From Chlamydiae bacterium RIFCSPHIGHO2_12_FULL_49_11 (GTDB lineage Bacteria > Chlamydiota > Chlamydiia > Chlamydiales > 2-12-FULL-49-11): a DNA stretch of 40,788 nucleotides. The stretch lies in contig MGLW01000015.1 in NCBI GenBank assembly GCA_001794905.1, positions 1 through 40,788 of the forward strand, in the 5' to 3' direction. Both the position numbers and the translations under genes were made by a program. The notes beneath the pieces are model-generated. The model was not told the DNA's origin and did no database searches. It worked only from the letters and a program-made list of their open reading frames with translations. Below, piece by piece: positions 26,035-40,788 of this stretch; the stretch's first letter is position 1; each line of letters begins with the position of its first letter.

Positions 26035-26438
26035 GCGGCTAAGTCGTTTGCGATTTCGGAGAGGTTTTGGATGAAGTTGTGACGCAAGGTGTCGGCCTCG
26101 GCCCAATTATTGATGAGGGTGCGCATGATCACCTCGTTCTGATGCTTTTTTGCAAGGTCGGCCGCTTGGATGAGGGTTGTGTTATGAGGCGCCAGAGAGC
26201 TGAGTTGGAGAGGTTGTGTGACGATCCCTTTGACAATGTAAGCGTTATACCAAATATCGGATTCCTCATTTTCATCCAGGGCGGCAGTTGCAAAATGGTC
26301 GACCCGCCACACAGTCTCACTGAAGTGTTCCAAGTCCTGTTTCGTAATTTCTTGAGACCCTTTGGCTTTGTCGGTAAGTAGATGCACTTCTTTGATGAAG
26401 GCCAAAAGTTCTCTCTTCAATTCATATGCCGAGTTCAT
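26031..26438 (-). CDS. Hypothetical protein (135 aa), translationally coupled to the upstream SpoU-type methyltransferase
   Basis: The ATG at 26438 overlaps the methyltransferase stop in an ATGA unit. Helical, acidic, no recognised motifs. The stop overlaps the sdhB stop on the opposite strand (TTAA). Confidence 0.55.
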   Translation of the reverse strand: MNSAYELKRELLAFIKEVHLLTDKAKGSQEITKQDLEHFSETVWRVDHFATAALDENEESDIWYNAYIVKGIVTQPLQLSSLAPHNTTLIQAADLAKKHQNEVIMRTLINNWAEADTLRHNFIQNLSEIANDLAA

Positions 26439-35478: not shown

Positions 35479-36094
35479 GGATAACCACCTCCTCATTCTT
35501 TACAAAACGGGAGGCCTGCTTACGATTCCCGAGGGAAACATTACGGATTCGCTCCTGGGGAGGGGCAAAAAGTACCTGAAAGAGAAAAAACAAACATCGG
35601 GAAACGTATTTCTCTATCCTCCCCACCGCCTCGATAAACCCGTCTCCGGCATCGTGGTCTTTGCCAAGACCTCCAAGGCCCTGTCCAGGCTAAACGAACA
35701 AATCCGGGATGGAGTGTGGCAAAAAGAGTACCTTGCGCATGTCGATACCGTGCCGTCGAAAGTCAAAGGAAGACTCGTTCATTATCTCTTGCAACACAAT
35801 CATCGGGCCTATGTATATGATGCCCATAAAAGTGGGACAAAAGAAGCGGTGTTAGAGTACGAAGTGGTCGGACCGCATCTTATCCGTATCCGGCTCATAA
35901 CGGGGCGCTACCATCAAATCCGCGTACAACTCTCTGCCATCGGATCGCCCATCCGGGGGGACGCGAAGTACGGAAGCAAAACAAAGAAAGAAAAAATCGG
36001 ACTGGAACACGTGAAGCTCACCCTCTTGCATCCCGTGTCAAAAATGCCTCTAACCGTGTCTAGTCAGAAAAATATTCACGATATCGAGTTGTAG
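35447..36094 (+). CDS. RluA-family pseudouridine synthase (no S4 domain)
   Basis: ILYEDNHLLILYK, catalytic HRLDKPVSGIVVFAKT, GRYHQIRVQL. Start taken at MKLSEKD (35447). Confidence 0.82.
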   Translation: MKLSEKDILYEDNHLLILYKTGGLLTIPEGNITDSLLGRGKKYLKEKKQTSGNVFLYPPHRLDKPVSGIVVFAKTSKALSRLNEQIRDGVWQKEYLAHVDTVPSKVKGRLVHYLLQHNHRAYVYDAHKSGTKEAVLEYEVVGPHLIRIRLITGRYHQIRVQLSAIGSPIRGDAKYGSKTKKEKIGLEHVKLTLLHPVSKMPLTVSSQKNIHDIEL

Positions 36095-37462
36095 CTGTAA
36101 AACTTCGGCCTTTGCACCAAAATTGCCGGCAATAGCCTTTAAAGCGGCAAAATATTCTGTCTGTGTTGGAATATGATGAAGGGTATTTTGGATTTTTTGG
36201 CGAATGATCCCCCCAAATGTCTTCGGAACGCTGGCCGTTTCAAGGAACCTCGGAATAGTATTATGTCCGCGCGTCATATTGATGAGAATTGCAATAGCAG
36301 GTTGCCACCTTTCGGGTTCCTTCGCGCAACTAAATTCCAAGGCATAACGGTTTAATAACTCGTTGCACTCCATCTTTGCCCAATCCCGGTTCCATTCGGT
36401 GAAGGTTGCAAAGGCAGCGGGTTTTTTCAGTGGGGGAAGCATTTGGTCAATAGGATGGAGGTCCTCGGAGAACTTGAGCGAAATGTCAATCTTATATTCT
36501 TTCAAACTTGCGCATACCGAGCGGAGGATGACTTGCAAATGTAAAGGAACCGGCTTCTCCGTCCACTCCAAAGTTTGGGTATTCTCAACCAGTTTCCTGA
36601 GTTCCTGTCCCCGCTCTTCCTTGTCGTCCAGTGTCGGATCTTGTTCGATCAGATCGGCTGTAGCACAAAGTGCCGTGAGTAAATTGAGAAAGTCTCTTTT
36701 CAATGTCGACAACATTGTGACTACATGCGAATACTGCCCGGCTTCGATGGCCGGTTCCTCGTTTGATGATGAAGCAGCCGCAAGTCTGCGGTGCGGCGGC
36801 GTTCCGACTACATGCGGATTCTGCGAAGCTTCAACTTGCTGCTCGTTTGATGAGGAAGCAACCGCTTGTTCGGGAAGCGGCGGCGGCTCATTTGAGGCGG
36901 GTGTTTGTGCAATATGGCTTACTTCATGCCGGACGCATTGAAAGATATGTCCTGTAGGATCGTGCTTCTTTCCAAGAAGATCCAAAGTCCTTCCGATGAA
37001 AACGGTTCTTGGGGCTGCAAGTAAAATCCGGAAAGCGCCGCGTAGCTCTTCTTCTTTGGGATTCCAATTTTGGAGTTCCTGCATCAGCAGCAAGTGATTA
37101 TCATCTGAAGATACAGCTTGTGACAGCATTTCCATTATATTTGAAATAGGGGCGCGGGAAAAGGTGCCTTTGAGGCAACGGTCGGCAAAGGACGGCCGGT
37201 AGTTTGCCAGGTCATCATTGATTTGTTTTGCGAGTTCTCTATCGGATTGGTTTTGGAACTGGGAAAGGTGCCGGTTGATGAGAGGGATAGTTTGGGTGTC
37301 GAAAACATGAAATAGTAAGCGAAAAACCACGGCAACAAAGTGAATTATTTTTTGAAGCAGGGGAGGCGTCGCATACACAAGTTGTTGATCTACCTCATGA
37401 AGTGCATAAAGATGACCTTCTTGCAGGGCCTTTTGGATGGAAATTAAGCTCATAACAACCAT
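36050..37462 (-). CDS. Hypothetical protein (470 aa), effector-like, with an internal imperfect tandem repeat
   Basis: Long ORF with no signal peptide or TM segment. Central repeat ASSSNE(Q/E)..(E/I)..Q..HVV occurs twice with a period of about 29 aa. The 3' end overlaps the convergent rluA-like gene by 45 nt. Confidence 0.6.
   Translation of the reverse strand: MVVMSLISIQKALQEGHLYALHEVDQQLVYATPPLLQKIIHFVAVVFRLLFHVFDTQTIPLINRHLSQFQNQSDRELAKQINDDLANYRPSFADRCLKGTFSRAPISNIMEMLSQAVSSDDNHLLLMQELQNWNPKEEELRGAFRILLAAPRTVFIGRTLDLLGKKHDPTGHIFQCVRHEVSHIAQTPASNEPPPLPEQAVASSSNEQQVEASQNPHVVGTPPHRRLAAASSSNEEPAIEAGQYSHVVTMLSTLKRDFLNLLTALCATADLIEQDPTLDDKEERGQELRKLVENTQTLEWTEKPVPLHLQVILRSVCASLKEYKIDISLKFSEDLHPIDQMLPPLKKPAAFATFTEWNRDWAKMECNELLNRYALEFSCAKEPERWQPAIAILINMTRGHNTIPRFLETASVPKTFGGIIRQKIQNTLHHIPTQTEYFAALKAIAGNFGAKAEVLQLQLDIVNIFLTRHG
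36718..36866 (-). repeat. Imperfect tandem duplication of about 87 nt inside the 36050..37462 CDS
   Basis: On the plus strand, GACTACATGCGAATACTGC...CTCGTTTGATGATGAAGCAGCCGC is repeated as GACTACATGCGGATTCTGC...CTCGTTTGATGAGGAAGCAACCGC. Confidence 0.7.
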
Positions 37463-37553
37463 TATAAATAAAAAATCAATATCTAATCAAGATTGAAAAA
37501 TCGACTATAACAGGGTTTTACCTTGGATGGAGGTGGAGGGACGCGCCCAGAAC

Positions 37554-37569
37554 TTTTGACCGGTCAAAA
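37554..37569. repeat. Perfect 16-bp palindrome TTTTGACCGGTCAAAA at the left edge of the AT-rich islet
   Basis: Read directly. Lies 12 nt downstream of the ATPase stop (37581) and upstream of the 36050..37462 gene start. Confidence 0.9.
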
Positions 37570-37580
37570 ATTAGAGAGAT

Positions 37581-38840
37581 TTACAAAGACAGAAGCCATT
37601 TCCAAATAGGAGTGACTATAATTTGAATTCCATCCACTTCAATTAGGTCATGTTCGTTTTCGGTAAGGATTAAGCCCTTTTGTAGATTATAGGCCTTCAT
37701 CGCTTCAACAAGTCCACTAATTTCTCGTTTCTTTATTTCTTCATTAGAGAGATGTGCTGTCACTTGAATAGCTTCAACGATGTGATTTCCTTCTCTAAGG
37801 ACAAAATCACACTCTTTTTGATCTTTGTGAAAATAAACTTCTTTTCCCAATCTTTTTAGATGTAGAAATACAATATTTTCTAATAGACGACCTCTATCCT
37901 CGCTAATGCGAAATCCGGTAATACGAATAATTGCAGGATCGATCATATAACATTTTTTGTTATATTGAATTTGCTTTTTTAGAGAATGACTATAGCGATT
38001 TACAAAAAAACAGAGATAACATTGCTCTAAGTAGTTGCAATAATTTGCGATCGTATGCGGACTGCTGATACCTACAATTTTACCAAGTTTTGTATAGCTA
38101 AATTCTTTTCCGATATTGCTAGCAAAATAATAGACTACTTCTTGCAAAGATCTTTCATCGTTTATTTTGTAACGAGTTATAATATCACGATAGAGAATAC
38201 CATCAAATAGATCTTTCAAATATTCAGCCTTTTCGAATTTTACATATTCAGGAATTCCTCCATTATTCAGGTAATTAGAAAAGTGATGTAATATCATTCC
38301 GGTGTCATTCGTTGAAAGAGCCTTCTTAGAGAGAATATCCGGATATTTATGTAATATAATTTCTCTAAAAGAAAGTGGGTATACTTCTAGCTGAATATAT
38401 CTACCGGTTAAATGAGTGCCTAACTCTTTACTTAAGAGTTTTGCATTGGATCCTGTGATATAAATTTTTTTCCCCTGTTCATAGAGTCTTCGGATAAATC
38501 TTTCCCATCCCTCGATATTTTGAATTTCATCAAAGTAAAACGTTGATTGTTCACCAAAGAGTTCTATTAAAACTTCCAGCAGCATTTGAAAGTCTTCAAC
38601 CTTGAATTGAATCAATCGTTCATCATCAAAATTTAAATAATAGTCTGACTTTGCTAACTCTAATTGTGATATGCGTTGAATTGTAGATTTTCCTGACCTT
38701 CTGATCCCACTGATAATCATTATACTTGGATCATTTACAAAACGCATTAAAGTATCAGTTAGCGTACGAATAAAAAAATTCTTAGGAGACTTGTACTCCC
38801 GTTGATCGGCAATGACTTGTTTGAGTACTTCTCGTTCCAT
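37581..38840 (-). CDS. COG1373-type AAA ATPase with an HTH-like segment and a DUF4143 / PD-(D/E)xK-like C-terminal domain
   Basis: Walker A ISGIRRSGKST, Walker B TFYFDEIQ, HTH-like YTKLGKIVGISSPHTIANYCNYLEQ, C-terminal ECDFVL...VEAIQVT. AT-rich codon usage. Strong SD (AGAGGGAAAAATG). Confidence 0.8.
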   Translation of the reverse strand: MEREVLKQVIADQREYKSPKNFFIRTLTDTLMRFVNDPSIMIISGIRRSGKSTIQRISQLELAKSDYYLNFDDERLIQFKVEDFQMLLEVLIELFGEQSTFYFDEIQNIEGWERFIRRLYEQGKKIYITGSNAKLLSKELGTHLTGRYIQLEVYPLSFREIILHKYPDILSKKALSTNDTGMILHHFSNYLNNGGIPEYVKFEKAEYLKDLFDGILYRDIITRYKINDERSLQEVVYYFASNIGKEFSYTKLGKIVGISSPHTIANYCNYLEQCYLCFFVNRYSHSLKKQIQYNKKCYMIDPAIIRITGFRISEDRGRLLENIVFLHLKRLGKEVYFHKDQKECDFVLREGNHIVEAIQVTAHLSNEEIKKREISGLVEAMKAYNLQKGLILTENEHDLIEVDGIQIIVTPIWKWLLSL

Positions 38841-38866
38841 TTTTCCCTCTTTCAGCTTTATACTTT

Positions 38867-38894
38867 ATTATACTTTAAAACCGTGTGTTGTCAA
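38867..38894 (-). promoter_or_regulatory. Near-consensus sigma70/66-type promoter for the ATPase gene
   Basis: On the minus strand: TTGACA (38894-38889), 16-nt spacer, TATAAT (38872-38867). This is about 27 nt upstream of the ATG at 38840. The -10 lies within a perfect 10-bp tandem duplication TTATACTTTA x2 (38858-38877, plus strand). Confidence 0.6.
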
Positions 38895-38935
38895 TACATG
38901 GTTTATCAAGTAACCGTGCGTTACCAACACATGGT
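38879..38935. promoter_or_regulatory. Two direct copies (33-bp spacing) of a 24-25 bp imperfect palindrome, AACCGTG-N11-CATGGT; candidate operator pair
   Basis: Copy 1 is AACCGTGTGTTGTCAATACATGGTT (38879-38903) and contains the -35 hexamer. Copy 2 is AACCGTGCGTTACCAACACATGGT (38912-38935). 20 of 24 positions are identical. Confidence 0.6.
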
Positions 38936-39125
38936 GTACGCCAAGCATCTAGACGCAAGCAAGTTGAGTTAAAATTGAAATGAATAAAAGGCCCACTGAA
39001 CGGATACAAACCGGATTACGGTACTTGAGGAGATTGGAATATATTTTTCAAATCTTTATTTACAATGAATAAGAAAAATGTAATGGTGCTTTTACTTTTT
39101 CAAAAGAAAACTTGGAGACGTTTTT

Positions 39126-39704
39126 ATGAGGATATTTCATATTTTTGCCTTTTTGTGCACATTCGTGATATGTAAACATTGTGAAGCTGCAGGCAGATTC
39201 TCTGTGAGCAAAATGGATTTTCAGTTTCATGGCATAGAATCTTTAACAATGTTTTTAGATCAATTAGAAACGACATCTTCAGATATTATATGCATCAAGT
39301 CGCTTACGAGCGAAATGAAAGAATGCATCTTCCGCATGTTCGAGCATAAATTTCCTTTTATCTATTCAGAGTTGGTGATTCCGGAGTTGCTGATTTTATC
39401 GAAATTTGAACTCTCCAAACTCAAAATTACATGCATCTCTCCTTCTGTTCGCAATGTTGGGCTTTTCCTGCCATGTTCAAATAGTAGCGATCAAGAAGAT
39501 ACCGACAATCAAACTCATGGATATGTAGAATTTGAAGGGAAGACTTCAACCCATGGTAACACAAGCATATATGCAGGAATCGGCATTGTCAGGGAAGGAG
39601 AAGACGGTTCTAAAGCAGATTTCTCCTGCGGGGGTCAAGTGAAGCGGAATATTGAAGGAGAAGTTGAAGGGGAAGCAACACTCAAAGGAAAATTTTCCTT
39701 CTAA
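39126..39704 (+). CDS. Secreted hypothetical protein (192 aa) with a C-terminal Phe
   Basis: Signal peptide MRIFHIFAFLCTFVICKHCEAA, GGAG SD upstream, Gly/Glu-rich beta-strand-like tail ending KGKFSF. The stop TAA abuts the ATG of the next gene. Confidence 0.6.
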   Translation: MRIFHIFAFLCTFVICKHCEAAGRFSVSKMDFQFHGIESLTMFLDQLETTSSDIICIKSLTSEMKECIFRMFEHKFPFIYSELVIPELLILSKFELSKLKITCISPSVRNVGLFLPCSNSSDQEDTDNQTHGYVEFEGKTSTHGNTSIYAGIGIVREGEDGSKADFSCGGQVKRNIEGEVEGEATLKGKFSF

Positions 39705-40601
39705 ATGAATCAAGCAAAACGCATCACACTACTTGCATCACTTGTTACAATAAGTGTCATTATATTGCTGGTTTACGTGCACCAATATTTTCACAATCAA
39801 AGATTGGCGACAATTTCACTTAAAGTGTCCACTTGGCATACGCCTGTTATTGTTGTAAATCGAGAAAACAAGTCGTTCTCTTTTTTATTAGACACGGGAA
39901 TGCGTTCGGATCTTTGTTTGAATGCAACAATAGAAGATGATTTTCCAATTCAAAAAACTGATACCCAAGGATTCATAACCAATATTCTTGGTAATGCCCA
40001 TCAAAAACACTTTTTTTATTTACCCCAATTGCAGCTGGAAACTCTCGTGATTAAGAACATACAAGGATTTTCCGAGGGTGCTGAGGCTGAAGAAGCAAAT
40101 CTTCCCATGAAATTTATTTGTCAAAAGGAGCACGATCATGTGGAGCCTCAAGCCACAATAGGGATGGGAATTCTTTCTAGATACAATTTTTTTCTTGACC
40201 TACATTTGGGGGAAATCTCGTTCTTTCATAAAGGGGTTGTCCCAAAGGATATATTAAAGAGGCGGTATCTAAAAATTCCTCTTATCTTTGAAGGAAAGAT
40301 ACCCATCGTTGAGCTAGATACCAATTTCGGCAAGAAAAAATTCATTATCGATACGGGTACTACGGTCTGTATCATTCCAAAAAAAATGCAACCGGCATAC
40401 CTGAATGAGTCATCGGAAGATGTTGAGATGTTCGATATGAACCTGCGATCCGGCAATTTTCATTTGGGAAAGCATCGATTTTTTCTGTTTGATGCCGATT
40501 TTAGCAAGGTGAATGCCGATGGTCTTATTGGGATGGATTTTTTATGCAAGTACGATCTGTTTTTCGATAATATCAAGCACTACTTATATTTGACGATCTA
40601 G
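39705..40601 (+). CDS. Membrane-anchored protein with two tandem retropepsin-like (clan AA) aspartic protease domains
   Basis: N-terminal TM segment ITLLASLVTISVIILLVYV. Domain 1 has FLLDTGMRS (DTG at 39891-39899) ... ATIGMGILSRYNFFLDL. Domain 2 has FIIDTGTTV (DTG at 40350-40358) ... DGLIGMDFLCKYDLFFD. Confidence 0.75.
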   Translation: MNQAKRITLLASLVTISVIILLVYVHQYFHNQRLATISLKVSTWHTPVIVVNRENKSFSFLLDTGMRSDLCLNATIEDDFPIQKTDTQGFITNILGNAHQKHFFYLPQLQLETLVIKNIQGFSEGAEAEEANLPMKFICQKEHDHVEPQATIGMGILSRYNFFLDLHLGEISFFHKGVVPKDILKRRYLKIPLIFEGKIPIVELDTNFGKKKFIIDTGTTVCIIPKKMQPAYLNESSEDVEMFDMNLRSGNFHLGKHRFFLFDADFSKVNADGLIGMDFLCKYDLFFDNIKHYLYLTI

Positions 40602-40613
40602 AAACCGCATGCA

Positions 40614-40788
40614 CTACTTTACCAGCAGTTGATAGGCATTCCAGGCGGCGCCTCGAAGAAGTTGGTCTCCGACAATCCATAGGTTGATGCTGCAGGGGTT
40701 GCTTTTATGGAGTCGTGGCGGGCTGACCCAGACCGTTTCTTTTCCTTGCGCTTTCAACGGAGTAGGGAGGGGGTCAATCCGGAGGGAG
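40614..40788 (-). CDS. asd: Aspartate-semialdehyde dehydrogenase, C-terminal 57 codons (rest lies outside the window)
   Basis: Not in the ORF track because it is under 60 aa. My translation of the minus strand gives ...NLWIVGDQLLRGAAWNAYQLLVK*, matching the conserved Asd C-terminus (NLWVV.DNLRKGAA.NAVQIAE). The frame is open to the window edge. Confidence 0.6.
   Translation of the reverse strand, partial: SLRIDPLPTPLKAQGKETVWVSPPRLHKSNPCSINLWIVGDQLLRGAAWNAYQLLVK

Follow-up and report, generated by a model that had tools for sequence, protein, structure and literature searches.

An AT-rich islet beside asd in a Chlamydiota genome, read as two accessory units: a candidate defense ATPase gene and a partner-protease gene pair

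Does the AT-rich block that adjoins asd in a Chlamydiota genome carry one self-regulated module of three genes, or separate accessory elements that became neighbors? The block lies near the end of a 40,788-nucleotide stretch of contig MGLW01000015.1 of Chlamydiae bacterium RIFCSPHIGHO2_12_FULL_49_11 (the whole stretch is called the window here); the same sequence is present as a contig of a groundwater metagenome (ENA ERZ4903070, k141_1237894). It holds an ATPase gene on the minus strand and, diverging from it, a gene for a protein with a signal-like N-terminus (the partner) followed by a gene for a membrane-anchored aspartic protease. The first-pass annotation had taken this islet for a single horizontally acquired module coupling an NTPase sensor or regulator to an exported protease pair. 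Our analysis leaves such a module mostly unsupported: the partner-protease pair recurs in other loci, and a DUF4143 ATPase adjoins it in only one of them, locus L036. We favor the reading that the islet consists of two accessory units that met in variable regions. The ATPase of unit A (37581-38938) is a member of a known candidate family, PDC-S01, and unit B (39126-40601) is a cassette of the bacterial clan AA protease or processing-pair type with an undescribed tail domain.

The AT-rich islet and its three genes

The islet and its principal features are the following (aa, amino acids; HTH, helix-turn-helix).

37463-40613, unstranded: AT-rich block of 3,151 bp, bounded on one side by the start of the gene for a 470-aa hypothetical protein and on the other by the stop codon of asd
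37581-38840, minus strand: PDC-S01-type ATPase, 419 aa, with an AAA_14 P-loop domain, a DUF4143 domain that includes a winged-HTH-like segment, and a C-terminal part of the PD-(D/E)XK-like type
39126-39704, plus strand: tail-bearing partner, 192 aa, matching no Pfam, NCBIfam or PADLOC family
39705-40601, plus strand: membrane-anchored single-chain bilobal aspartic protease, 298 aa (Pfam, AlphaFold2 and Foldseek)
40614-40788, minus strand: 3' end of asd (the name given in the first-pass annotation), a convergent neighbor outside the islet

The low GC content noted earlier for ~37.47 to 40.60 kb was confirmed, the block having a GC content of 0.356 versus 0.489 ± 0.035 in 500-bp windows over bases 1 to 37000. 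Along the sequence, 500-bp windows gave values of 0.32 to 0.39 between 37.5 and 40.5 kb versus 0.41 to 0.56 elsewhere in the window, with a return to normal past 40613. The GC content at third codon positions (GC3) was 0.264 for the ATPase gene, 0.373 for the partner gene and 0.388 for the protease gene; the 36 other open reading frames (ORFs) of the window have a mean of 0.551 ± 0.036 and a minimum of 0.446. The islet genes are thus 4.5 to 8 standard deviations under the window mean, the ATPase gene being the lowest at 8. Exactly three plausible genes occupy the block, and both their number and the identities first proposed for them were correct. Equally correct were the translational abutment of the plus-strand pair (TAA then ATG at 39702-39707), the hydrophobic N-termini of both products, the two DTG motifs of the protease, and the gap of only 12 nt between the end of the protease stop codon (40601) and the start of the convergent asd stop codon (40614).

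The partner and protease genes recur as a pair

Loci were gathered by protease alignment from one genome per GTDB species and from JGI metagenomes, which gave 38 protease loci (22 from genomes and 16 from metagenomes), mostly from Chlamydiota. The gene directly upstream of the protease ended in a homologous tail in 19 other loci by hidden Markov model (HMM) and in 4 more as a divergent or half tail. Such a tail was lacking upstream in 2 of the ~25 loci with readable upstream sequence (Chlamydiota and the wider PVC group), and every tail match in the collected loci adjoins a protease. In most loci, the partner and protease genes share 4 nt, directly abut or are spaced by no more than ~35 nt. 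This is a conserved pair across several environmental Chlamydiota families, combining an unannotated beta-tail domain with a compact single-chain aspartic protease. We found no trace of the pair in the literature, and literature searches on chlamydial retropepsins or aspartyl proteases and on PF13650/PF13975 gave nothing relevant.

The GC3 of the pair was below the mean of its neighboring genes in all 12 other genomes (24 of 25 genes). The family as a whole is thus AT-rich, which fits frequent intraphylum transfer and, equally, relaxed codon selection. Hence, low GC content is no proof of recent acquisition in the window and, taken alone, is a poor sign of recent transfer for this family. The horizontal origin proposed in the first-pass annotation for the whole islet holds, very probably, for the ATPase gene, given its composition (GC3 of 0.26), the patchy cross-domain phylogeny of its relatives (38 to 39% identity) and the mobile behavior of its family; the case for the pair is weaker.

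The pair's neighbors elsewhere are heterogeneous and often of an accessory or mobile kind; they include transposases, a Phd/YefM antitoxin, a Schlafen/Fic-like protein, a RecD-like helicase, an Ank-RING protein and a MORN-repeat protein. In two other chlamydial genomes (L021:6540-12950 and L015:994-8869), the pair stands 1 to 4 kb from an orthologue of the window ABC-F gene (27151-28842), and in L021 it is also beside SpoU-like and XerD-like genes, the window counterpart of this block being 26435-29659. As the pair is 10 kb from the ABC-F gene in the window, its position is not conserved and the synteny is loose.

The ATPase gene is a copy of the candidate defense gene PDC-S01

The earlier statement that the islet matches no named module fails for the ATPase, which matches a named single-gene candidate. 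In PADLOC-DB, it is PDC-S01 (profile PDLC04787, E value of 6.7e-117, 388.8 bits), with an alignment that spans residues 21 to 418 of the protein and positions 9 to 408 of the 412 in the profile. Pfam gave AAA_14 (E value of 5.6e-34), DUF4143 (residues 218 to 360, 3.7e-23) and a weak Mrr_cat match (0.0018), and the protein aligns over its full length with homologues from Treponema and Methanomethylovorans. No solved structure was detectable for it by sequence. The motifs below are read from a four-sequence alignment.

38682-38708, minus strand: Walker A (G45-IRRSGKS-T53), with G45, R47, G50, K51 and T53 invariant
38526-38531, minus strand: Walker B (D104-E105), both residues invariant
38025-38099, minus strand: HTH-like segment of DUF4143, residues 248-272, SYTKLGKIVGISSPHTIANYCNYLE, with T263, Y267 and E272 invariant
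37758-37814, minus strand: nuclease-like core (E343-C-D345 ... I-Q359-V-T361), with E343 and D345 invariant

DUF4143/COG1373 proteins are catalogued within the PD-(D/E)XK superfamily (PMC3424549), and the window protein is one polypeptide in which a P-loop ATPase is fused to a domain of that superfamily. The HTH-like segment would be the part that binds DNA. Where the nuclease motif calls for E-x-K, the window ATPase has IQVT, as does its Methanomethylovorans homologue, and that of Treponema has VQVC, versus IEVK in the ATPase of L036. As this position is noncanonical, nuclease activity is uncertain, and the nuclease of the Q-V-T/C subfamily (the window ATPase and the homologues L058 and L059) may lack activity or rely on a Lys at a shifted position.

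PDC-S01 is described as a single-gene putative defense candidate that unites an ATPase and a PD-(D/E)XK member in one protein. It is reported to be the fourth commonest defense call across prokaryotes and to have passed repeatedly between Archaea and Bacteria, and tens of thousands of its copies have no protease beside them (PMC12988326). The window ATPase resembles this family in its full-length profile match, its two-domain architecture, and its AT-rich, foreign-looking gene. It differs in standing between housekeeping genes with no other defense gene in view, and the family itself has no demonstrated antiphage activity. Among 72,556 plasmids, the closest relatives of the ATPase were only 38 to 39% identical and came from Treponema, the archaeon Methanomethylovorans, Bacteroides and Sulfuricurvum. 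The Treponema copy lies inside a type I restriction-modification operon, between hsdR and the methylase gene, and the archaeal copy is near a viperin gene and an insertion sequence element. The window ATPase gene is a further copy of a very common, unvalidated candidate defense gene.

A probably repressible promoter that faces the ATPase gene only

The divergent intergenic region (38841-39125, 285 bp) had been described as a control region shared by the ATPase gene and the pair. A promoter and palindromes are indeed present, the promoter being a perfect match, and both face the ATPase gene only.

38894-38867, minus strand: perfect sigma-70-type promoter (TTGACA-16-TATAAT), ~26 nt upstream of the ATPase ATG
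38879-38905 and 38912-38938, unstranded: two 27-nt imperfect palindromes with starts 33 nt apart, putative operators

The ATPase promoter is the sole 12/12 sigma-70 match in 37400-40788; matches of at least 9/12 numbered 13 overall versus 10.5 ± 3.2 in shuffled sequences, i.e., without enrichment. A consensus sigma-70 scan found no comparable or convincing plus-strand promoter for the partner-protease operon. The palindrome copies form a direct repeat (D1, 81% identical) and an inverted repeat (I1, 24 nt), and the first palindrome (38879-38905) covers the -35 hexamer of the promoter. Promoter and palindromes together are a classic repressible-promoter layout, in which a repressor would bind the palindromes. 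Autoregulation by the ATPase is a reasonable inference, because nothing else in the islet is a candidate for DNA binding besides its HTH (residues 248-272). The palindrome motif was not found in foreign loci and occurs only in loci of the window's own organism. This clean layout might offer a convenient case for how such genes are held in check. In the same region, window positions 38858-38877 are a perfect tandem duplication of TTATACTTTA across the -10 box and the start of the leader.

The ATPase and the pair seldom meet

If the three genes formed one module, the ATPase should accompany the pair elsewhere, as the first-pass annotation itself had suggested checking. Among the ~16 loci with enough flanking sequence, besides the window, a DUF4143 ATPase adjoins the pair in L036 only, and a conserved three-gene co-occurrence of ATPase, partner and protease is not what the loci display. 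In L036:285-9925, the order is an AbiEii toxin, a DUF5681 protein, a P4-type tyrosine integrase, the DUF4143 ATPase, the partner, the protease, dapA and a MORN-repeat protein, and an AT-rich block (5.0 to 9.0 kb) begins directly after the integrase. The L036 ATPase is 22% identical to that of the window, has PDLC04790 and PDLC04789 as its best PDC-S01 submodels, and is on the same strand as the pair, whereas the window ATPase is divergent from it; among the homologues, the subgroups of the L036 protease and partner are the most distant. We considered L036 and the window as one orthologous three-gene locus and rejected this, since the 460-aa gene that flanks the L036 block is a P4-type integrase unrelated to the window 470-aa gene; the different ATPase submodels and the very distant L036 protease also speak against it. 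The difference in GC3 between unit A (0.26) and unit B (0.37 to 0.39) was likewise counted in favor of independence.

A compact bilobal protease with features of retropepsins and pepsins

The protease joins a pepsin-like architecture to a retropepsin-like sequence, with a predicted signal-anchor tether to the membrane.

~39723-39779, plus strand: N-terminal transmembrane helix (Kyte-Doolittle hydropathy of 2.7; residues 3 to 29 are helical in the model)
39891-39899, plus strand: DTG motif of the N-lobe, catalytic D63
40350-40358, plus strand: DTG motif of the C-lobe, catalytic D216

Pfam matches were weak and split by lobe: gag-asp_proteas (28.6 bits, cutoff of 28.2) and Asp_protease_2 (28.0, cutoff of 24.3) in the N-lobe and RVP (25.8, cutoff of 20.7) in the C-lobe, all of them retroviral-type families, while the pepsin family PF00026 gave no match at an E value of ≤0.1. 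In an alignment of 91 homologues, D63, G65, D216, T217 and G218 were at least 90% conserved. AlphaFold2 on this alignment gave a predicted local distance difference test (pLDDT) score of 92.2 and a predicted template modeling (TM) score of 0.87, for an N-terminal helix followed by an all-beta body. With this model, the best Foldseek match in the PDB was a putative endopeptidase of Bacteroides fragilis (9iy9, 1.3e-11), followed by plasmepsins, renin and fungal pepsins, monomeric enzymes with which it aligns from end to end over ~340 to 350 columns (TM scores of 0.55 to 0.63; E values in this group of matches were 1e-9 to 1e-11); viral retropepsins fit one lobe only. A PDB sequence-profile search gave only marginal matches to ASPRV1 and DDI1.

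The protease thus has the D-T/S-G triplet of the retropepsins in a chain of two nonidentical lobes, and not the one domain per chain of a retropepsin homodimer. With pepsin family A1, including shewasins A and D (PMC4814920), and with 9iy9 it shares the single-chain bilobal fold and one catalytic Asp per lobe. It differs from family A1 in a catalytic region of ~270 residues versus ~325, in a membrane anchor where pepsins have a propeptide, and in lobes that match retroviral-type families, with scores close to or slightly over the cutoffs, and not the family profile PF00026.

Word-indexed protein searches were nearly blind for the fast-evolving islet proteins: for the protease, they returned 4 relatives with at most 26% identity. 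An exhaustive profile search gave 4,763 protease clusters at an E value of ≤1e-3 and 472 at ≤1e-30, most of them ~300 aa long, and 33 of the top 148 clusters were tandem fusions of 450 to 846 aa. An N-terminal hydrophobic segment was present in 113 of 140 representatives.

Several side observations concern the protease. Tandem expansion was seen in L051:3984-9361 (four proteases in a row after one long partner) and in L015, L044 and L047, and fused proteases of two or three units, up to 846 aa, in L027, L030, L045 and P0006, with one tail-bearing gene per array. The protease P0090 (412 aa) is extended at its C-terminus by 115 aa, of which the final ~40 are weakly half-tail-like (whole-protein E value of 8e-4, domain E value of 0.007), and it may be a protease-tail fusion. 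The last ~40 residues of the C-lobe weakly match PADLOC PDC-M08B, a ~127-aa component of a multigene defense candidate, in the window (E value of 0.0016) and in L036:7800-8747 (7e-6), which probably reflects just the shared retropepsin motif GxxGxDFL.

A variable partner with a constant C-terminal tail

The partner is built from the following parts (EEP, endonuclease/exonuclease/phosphatase).

39126-39188, plus strand: signal-like N-terminus, a hydrophobic segment
~39249-39410, plus strand: sphingomyelinase/EEP-like remnant, followed by a linker, from alignment to long homologues
39510-39701, plus strand: conserved C-terminal tail, residues 129-192, with four amphipathic beta strands, DxDGN-type turns and a terminal Phe

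The tail HMM matched the window partner with an E value of 9e-20 and had no other match in the window. In its four segments, polar and hydrophobic residues strictly alternate, parted by D-x-(D/E)-G-N and G turns; the tail ends in hydrophobic-x-F/W and is ~60 aa long across loci. AlphaFold2 modeled it as four 12-residue strands with a pLDDT of 58 to 70, the sole part of the partner model above 55. The tail had no match in Pfam or the PDB. A fold search with the partner model as a whole (pLDDT of 42.6) gave no match at an E value of ≤0.001, a result that we disregarded. Word-indexed searches returned one partner relative, and three matches for a 20-sequence tail profile.

Across loci, the N-terminal cargo varies and the tail is constant. 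Long partners (456 to 497 aa) have a signal peptide and an EEP-superfamily domain of ~300 aa, closest to neutral sphingomyelinase (SMPD3, 5uvg, E value of 2.4e-5), with a weak match to beta-hemolysin and with PF03372 just below threshold. Midlength forms carry other small N-terminal domains, and most long and midlength partners have signal-like N-termini. Of the EEP-like domain found in the long homologues, the window partner aligns only to the initial ~55 residues, and it has lost the position of the catalytic Glu (DIICIKSL versus D(V/I)xC(I/V)QE), so that it has no complete EEP catalytic domain.

A further class of short partners is found in L020, L023, L026, L031, L036 and L052 and in P0154 to P0156; these start with MSI(E/D)xIS or MNIEPI and continue through an acidic stretch into the tail. 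Two variant partners (L033:31-456 and L047:7492-7869) keep the first two tail strands only (…IEISVGFEDTRGNQYEVKVAYEKD…), and an acidic low-complexity C-terminus replaces strands 3 and 4 and the terminal aromatic residue.

Proposed model and alternatives

We propose, tentatively and with a confidence that falls just short of even, a model in which the islet combines an autonomous, probably autorepressed PDC-S01 gene with a periplasm-facing mini-pepsin that cleaves its cognate tail-bearing partner. Unit A would be an autonomous single-gene PDC-S01 cassette with its own consensus promoter, the transcription of which would probably be throttled by a dimeric DNA-binding protein sitting on the palindromes over the -35 box; this protein is perhaps the ATPase itself, acting through its HTH. 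Unit B would be a translationally coupled two-gene cassette of environmental Chlamydiota. Its partner would be exported by Sec with a C-terminal four-strand amphipathic tail, and its protease would be tethered to the inner membrane by the N-terminal helix, so that the catalytic domain faces the periplasm. The protease would then recognize the tail of its cognate partner and cut at or near it, and this cut would serve to mature, release or sort the cargo at the N-terminus; in the long homologues, this cargo is a neutral-sphingomyelinase-like phosphodiesterase, and in the window it is truncated. The tail itself could serve as a docking or membrane-insertion element. If the protease does mature its partner, intracellular bacteria would have in this pair a new system dedicated to the processing of exported proteins, sphingomyelinase-like candidate effectors among them. 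The protease would also provide a bacterial model of how duplication and fusion could have led from retropepsin to pepsin.

In function, the closest precedent is the membrane-embedded, retropepsin-like protease APRc (RC1339) of Rickettsia, of which two autotransporters, OmpA and OmpB, are substrates in vitro (PMC4140852). Both proteases belong to clan AA and to obligate intracellular Gram-negative bacteria, both are membrane tethered, and both are proposed to process exported proteins with a C-terminal beta domain. However, APRc has one retropepsin domain, must dimerize, and has several transmembrane segments, whereas the window protease has two lobes and one N-terminal helix; its putative substrate is encoded directly upstream and ends in four strands without an autotransporter barrel.

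A C-terminal tag and its processing enzyme are also what make up the known sorting and maturation pairs, i.e., sortase with LPXTG proteins, exosortase with PEP-CTERM proteins, and PorU with the C-terminal domain of the type IX secretion system. The window cassette resembles these in its variable cargo, its constant C-terminal element and its membrane-associated protease encoded beside a single presumed target. It differs in that the tag is a 60-aa beta-strand domain without a transmembrane helix or signature motif and that the enzyme is an aspartic protease with a presumed cleavage. Four strands per chain are likewise found in the anchors of trimeric autotransporters, and amphipathic hairpins in beta-pore-forming proteins; the tail is comparable in its four ~12-residue strands, its strict in/out alternation and its end like an outer-membrane beta-signal. 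However, neither the window partner nor the long partners nor 20 tails had an Autotransporter or YadA_anchor Pfam match, no coiled coil precedes the tail, and its oligomerization and insertion are hypothetical. As to the type V signature, the window and long partners combine a signal-like N-terminus with a hydrophobic-x-F/W end, and the short class has no signal peptide.

A further-reaching extension would be that the tail and the protease form an undescribed, Chlamydiota-wide device for protease-dependent export or activation. Tails would oligomerize into a membrane beta barrel, as an outer-membrane anchor or a pore, and the mini-pepsin would cut to release or activate the cargo, e.g., sphingomyelinase-like effectors, the protease family being a living intermediate between retropepsins and pepsins. 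We regard this extension as speculative and unlikely; if true, it would amount to a novel way of sorting or activating proteins, with a loose resemblance to autotransporter processing or protease-gated pore formers.

Several points weigh against the composite model that we favor. Some are about unit A: Q-V-T replaces the E-x-K of the nuclease motif in the PDC-S01 subfamily of the window ATPase, and PDC-S01 was outside the 4 of 8 candidates reported to protect Escherichia coli against T4, T5 or T7 (bioRxiv 10.1101/2024.09.26.614923), so that, as this was the single screen found, its defense label is still a hypothesis. L036 repeats a three-gene AT-rich block beside dapA, as the window does beside asd, which is suggestive because both are genes of the diaminopimelate pathway. 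As to unit B, several loci hold two to four tandem or fused proteases and one partner, which the model leaves unexplained. It equally leaves unexplained why the cargo domain is mostly lost in the window partner, where perhaps nothing is left to mature, and why there is a class of short partners (108 to 162 aa, N-terminus MSI(E/D)xIS) without a signal peptide, which would not meet a periplasmic protease through Sec. Moreover, the partner model is poor overall (pLDDT of 42.6, from a four-row alignment).

These points bear differently on three other explanations. The tail protein could serve the protease as its own inhibitor, chaperone or membrane adaptor and not be its substrate, the islet still being composite, which we see as somewhat unlikely. 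The beta-strand tail would then dock onto the enzyme or block it, in the manner of protease inhibitors encoded in the same operon, such as the staphostatins with the staphopains and AprI/Inh with the serralysins. Conservation in the partner is confined to the tail, the N-terminal part shrinking to as little as ~45 residues, and in the window the tail has stayed intact while the enzyme domain was lost; in addition, translational coupling suggests stoichiometric coproduction, and short partners without a signal peptide recall cytoplasmic "safety" inhibitors. However, the ~300-aa sphingomyelinase-like domain of the long forms would be needless for an inhibitor, loci with two to four proteases have a single partner, and Pfam and PDB scans made the tail unlike any known inhibitor family. 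A decaying remnant is a very unlikely explanation of the pair. Under it, the partner would be truncated and nonfunctional, and the AT-richness would come not from transfer but from relaxed selection on weakly expressed, fast-evolving accessory genes. The ~55 remaining EEP-like residues without the catalytic Glu would fit, and so would the AT-richness of the pair over its flanks in 12 of 12 other genomes, a nearest protease homologue only 26% identical among billions of proteins, and the failure to find a plus-strand promoter. However, both ORFs are intact, the tail fits its family HMM at 9e-20, both DTG motifs and all the other listed near-invariant positions of the 91-sequence family are present, translational coupling and the GGAG site are preserved, and the same sequences were recovered in ~10 independent assemblies.

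The three-gene self-regulated module, in which the DUF4143 ATPase would sense or regulate and the exported protease pair would execute, e.g., as a multigene defense or stress system, is quite improbable in our view. L036 does bring ATPase, partner and protease into one AT-rich block, an adjacency expected by chance in ~16 informative loci at about a few percent, by our rough estimate from typical PDC-S01 frequencies. The genes also diverge from a common intergenic region with operators, the pair is often among mobile or defense-type genes (transposases, Phd/YefM, Schlafen/Fic-like, AbiEii), and the C-lobe of the protease has its weak PDC-M08B matches. Yet, the pair is found in ~22 other loci with no such ATPase within reach, and the window and L036 ATPases are 22% identical, with different submodels and opposite orientations. 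The L036 copy is perhaps island cargo, because it adjoins an integrase. Besides, PDC-S01 is defined as a single-gene system with tens of thousands of copies that lack proteases, the promoter and operators serve the ATPase gene only, and a cytoplasmic ATPase and a periplasmic protease would have no obvious means of communication.

Limits and neighbors of the islet

The islet had no flanking mobility signature. Direct repeats flanking it as insertion scars were limited to short pairs at chance level, tRNA and Rfam scans of the whole window gave no match, and no integrase adjoins the islet, the nearest XerC/D-like gene (Phage_integrase matches) being at 28769-29659. Every contig with the flanking 470-aa gene also has the ATPase gene, and no islet-free variant occurs among the recovered population variants. 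On the asd side, the end of the gene so named translates as ...NAYQLLVK*, and a 211-aa partial product is readable from L001.

The 470-aa neighbor (36050-37462, minus strand) matches no Pfam or NCBIfam family. Outside the islet, only one gene has a GC3 below its value of 0.473; its product has a single hydrophobic segment (residues 35 to 53), and its 3' end overlaps that of a convergent RluA-like gene by 45 nt (36050-36094). Farther away, at 29750-32271 on the minus strand, two adjoining Ser/Thr protein kinase genes (364 and 450 aa, Pfam Pkinase) stand upstream of a string of genes consisting of nrdR, a dksA-like gene, lspA, CinA, SpoU and RluA.

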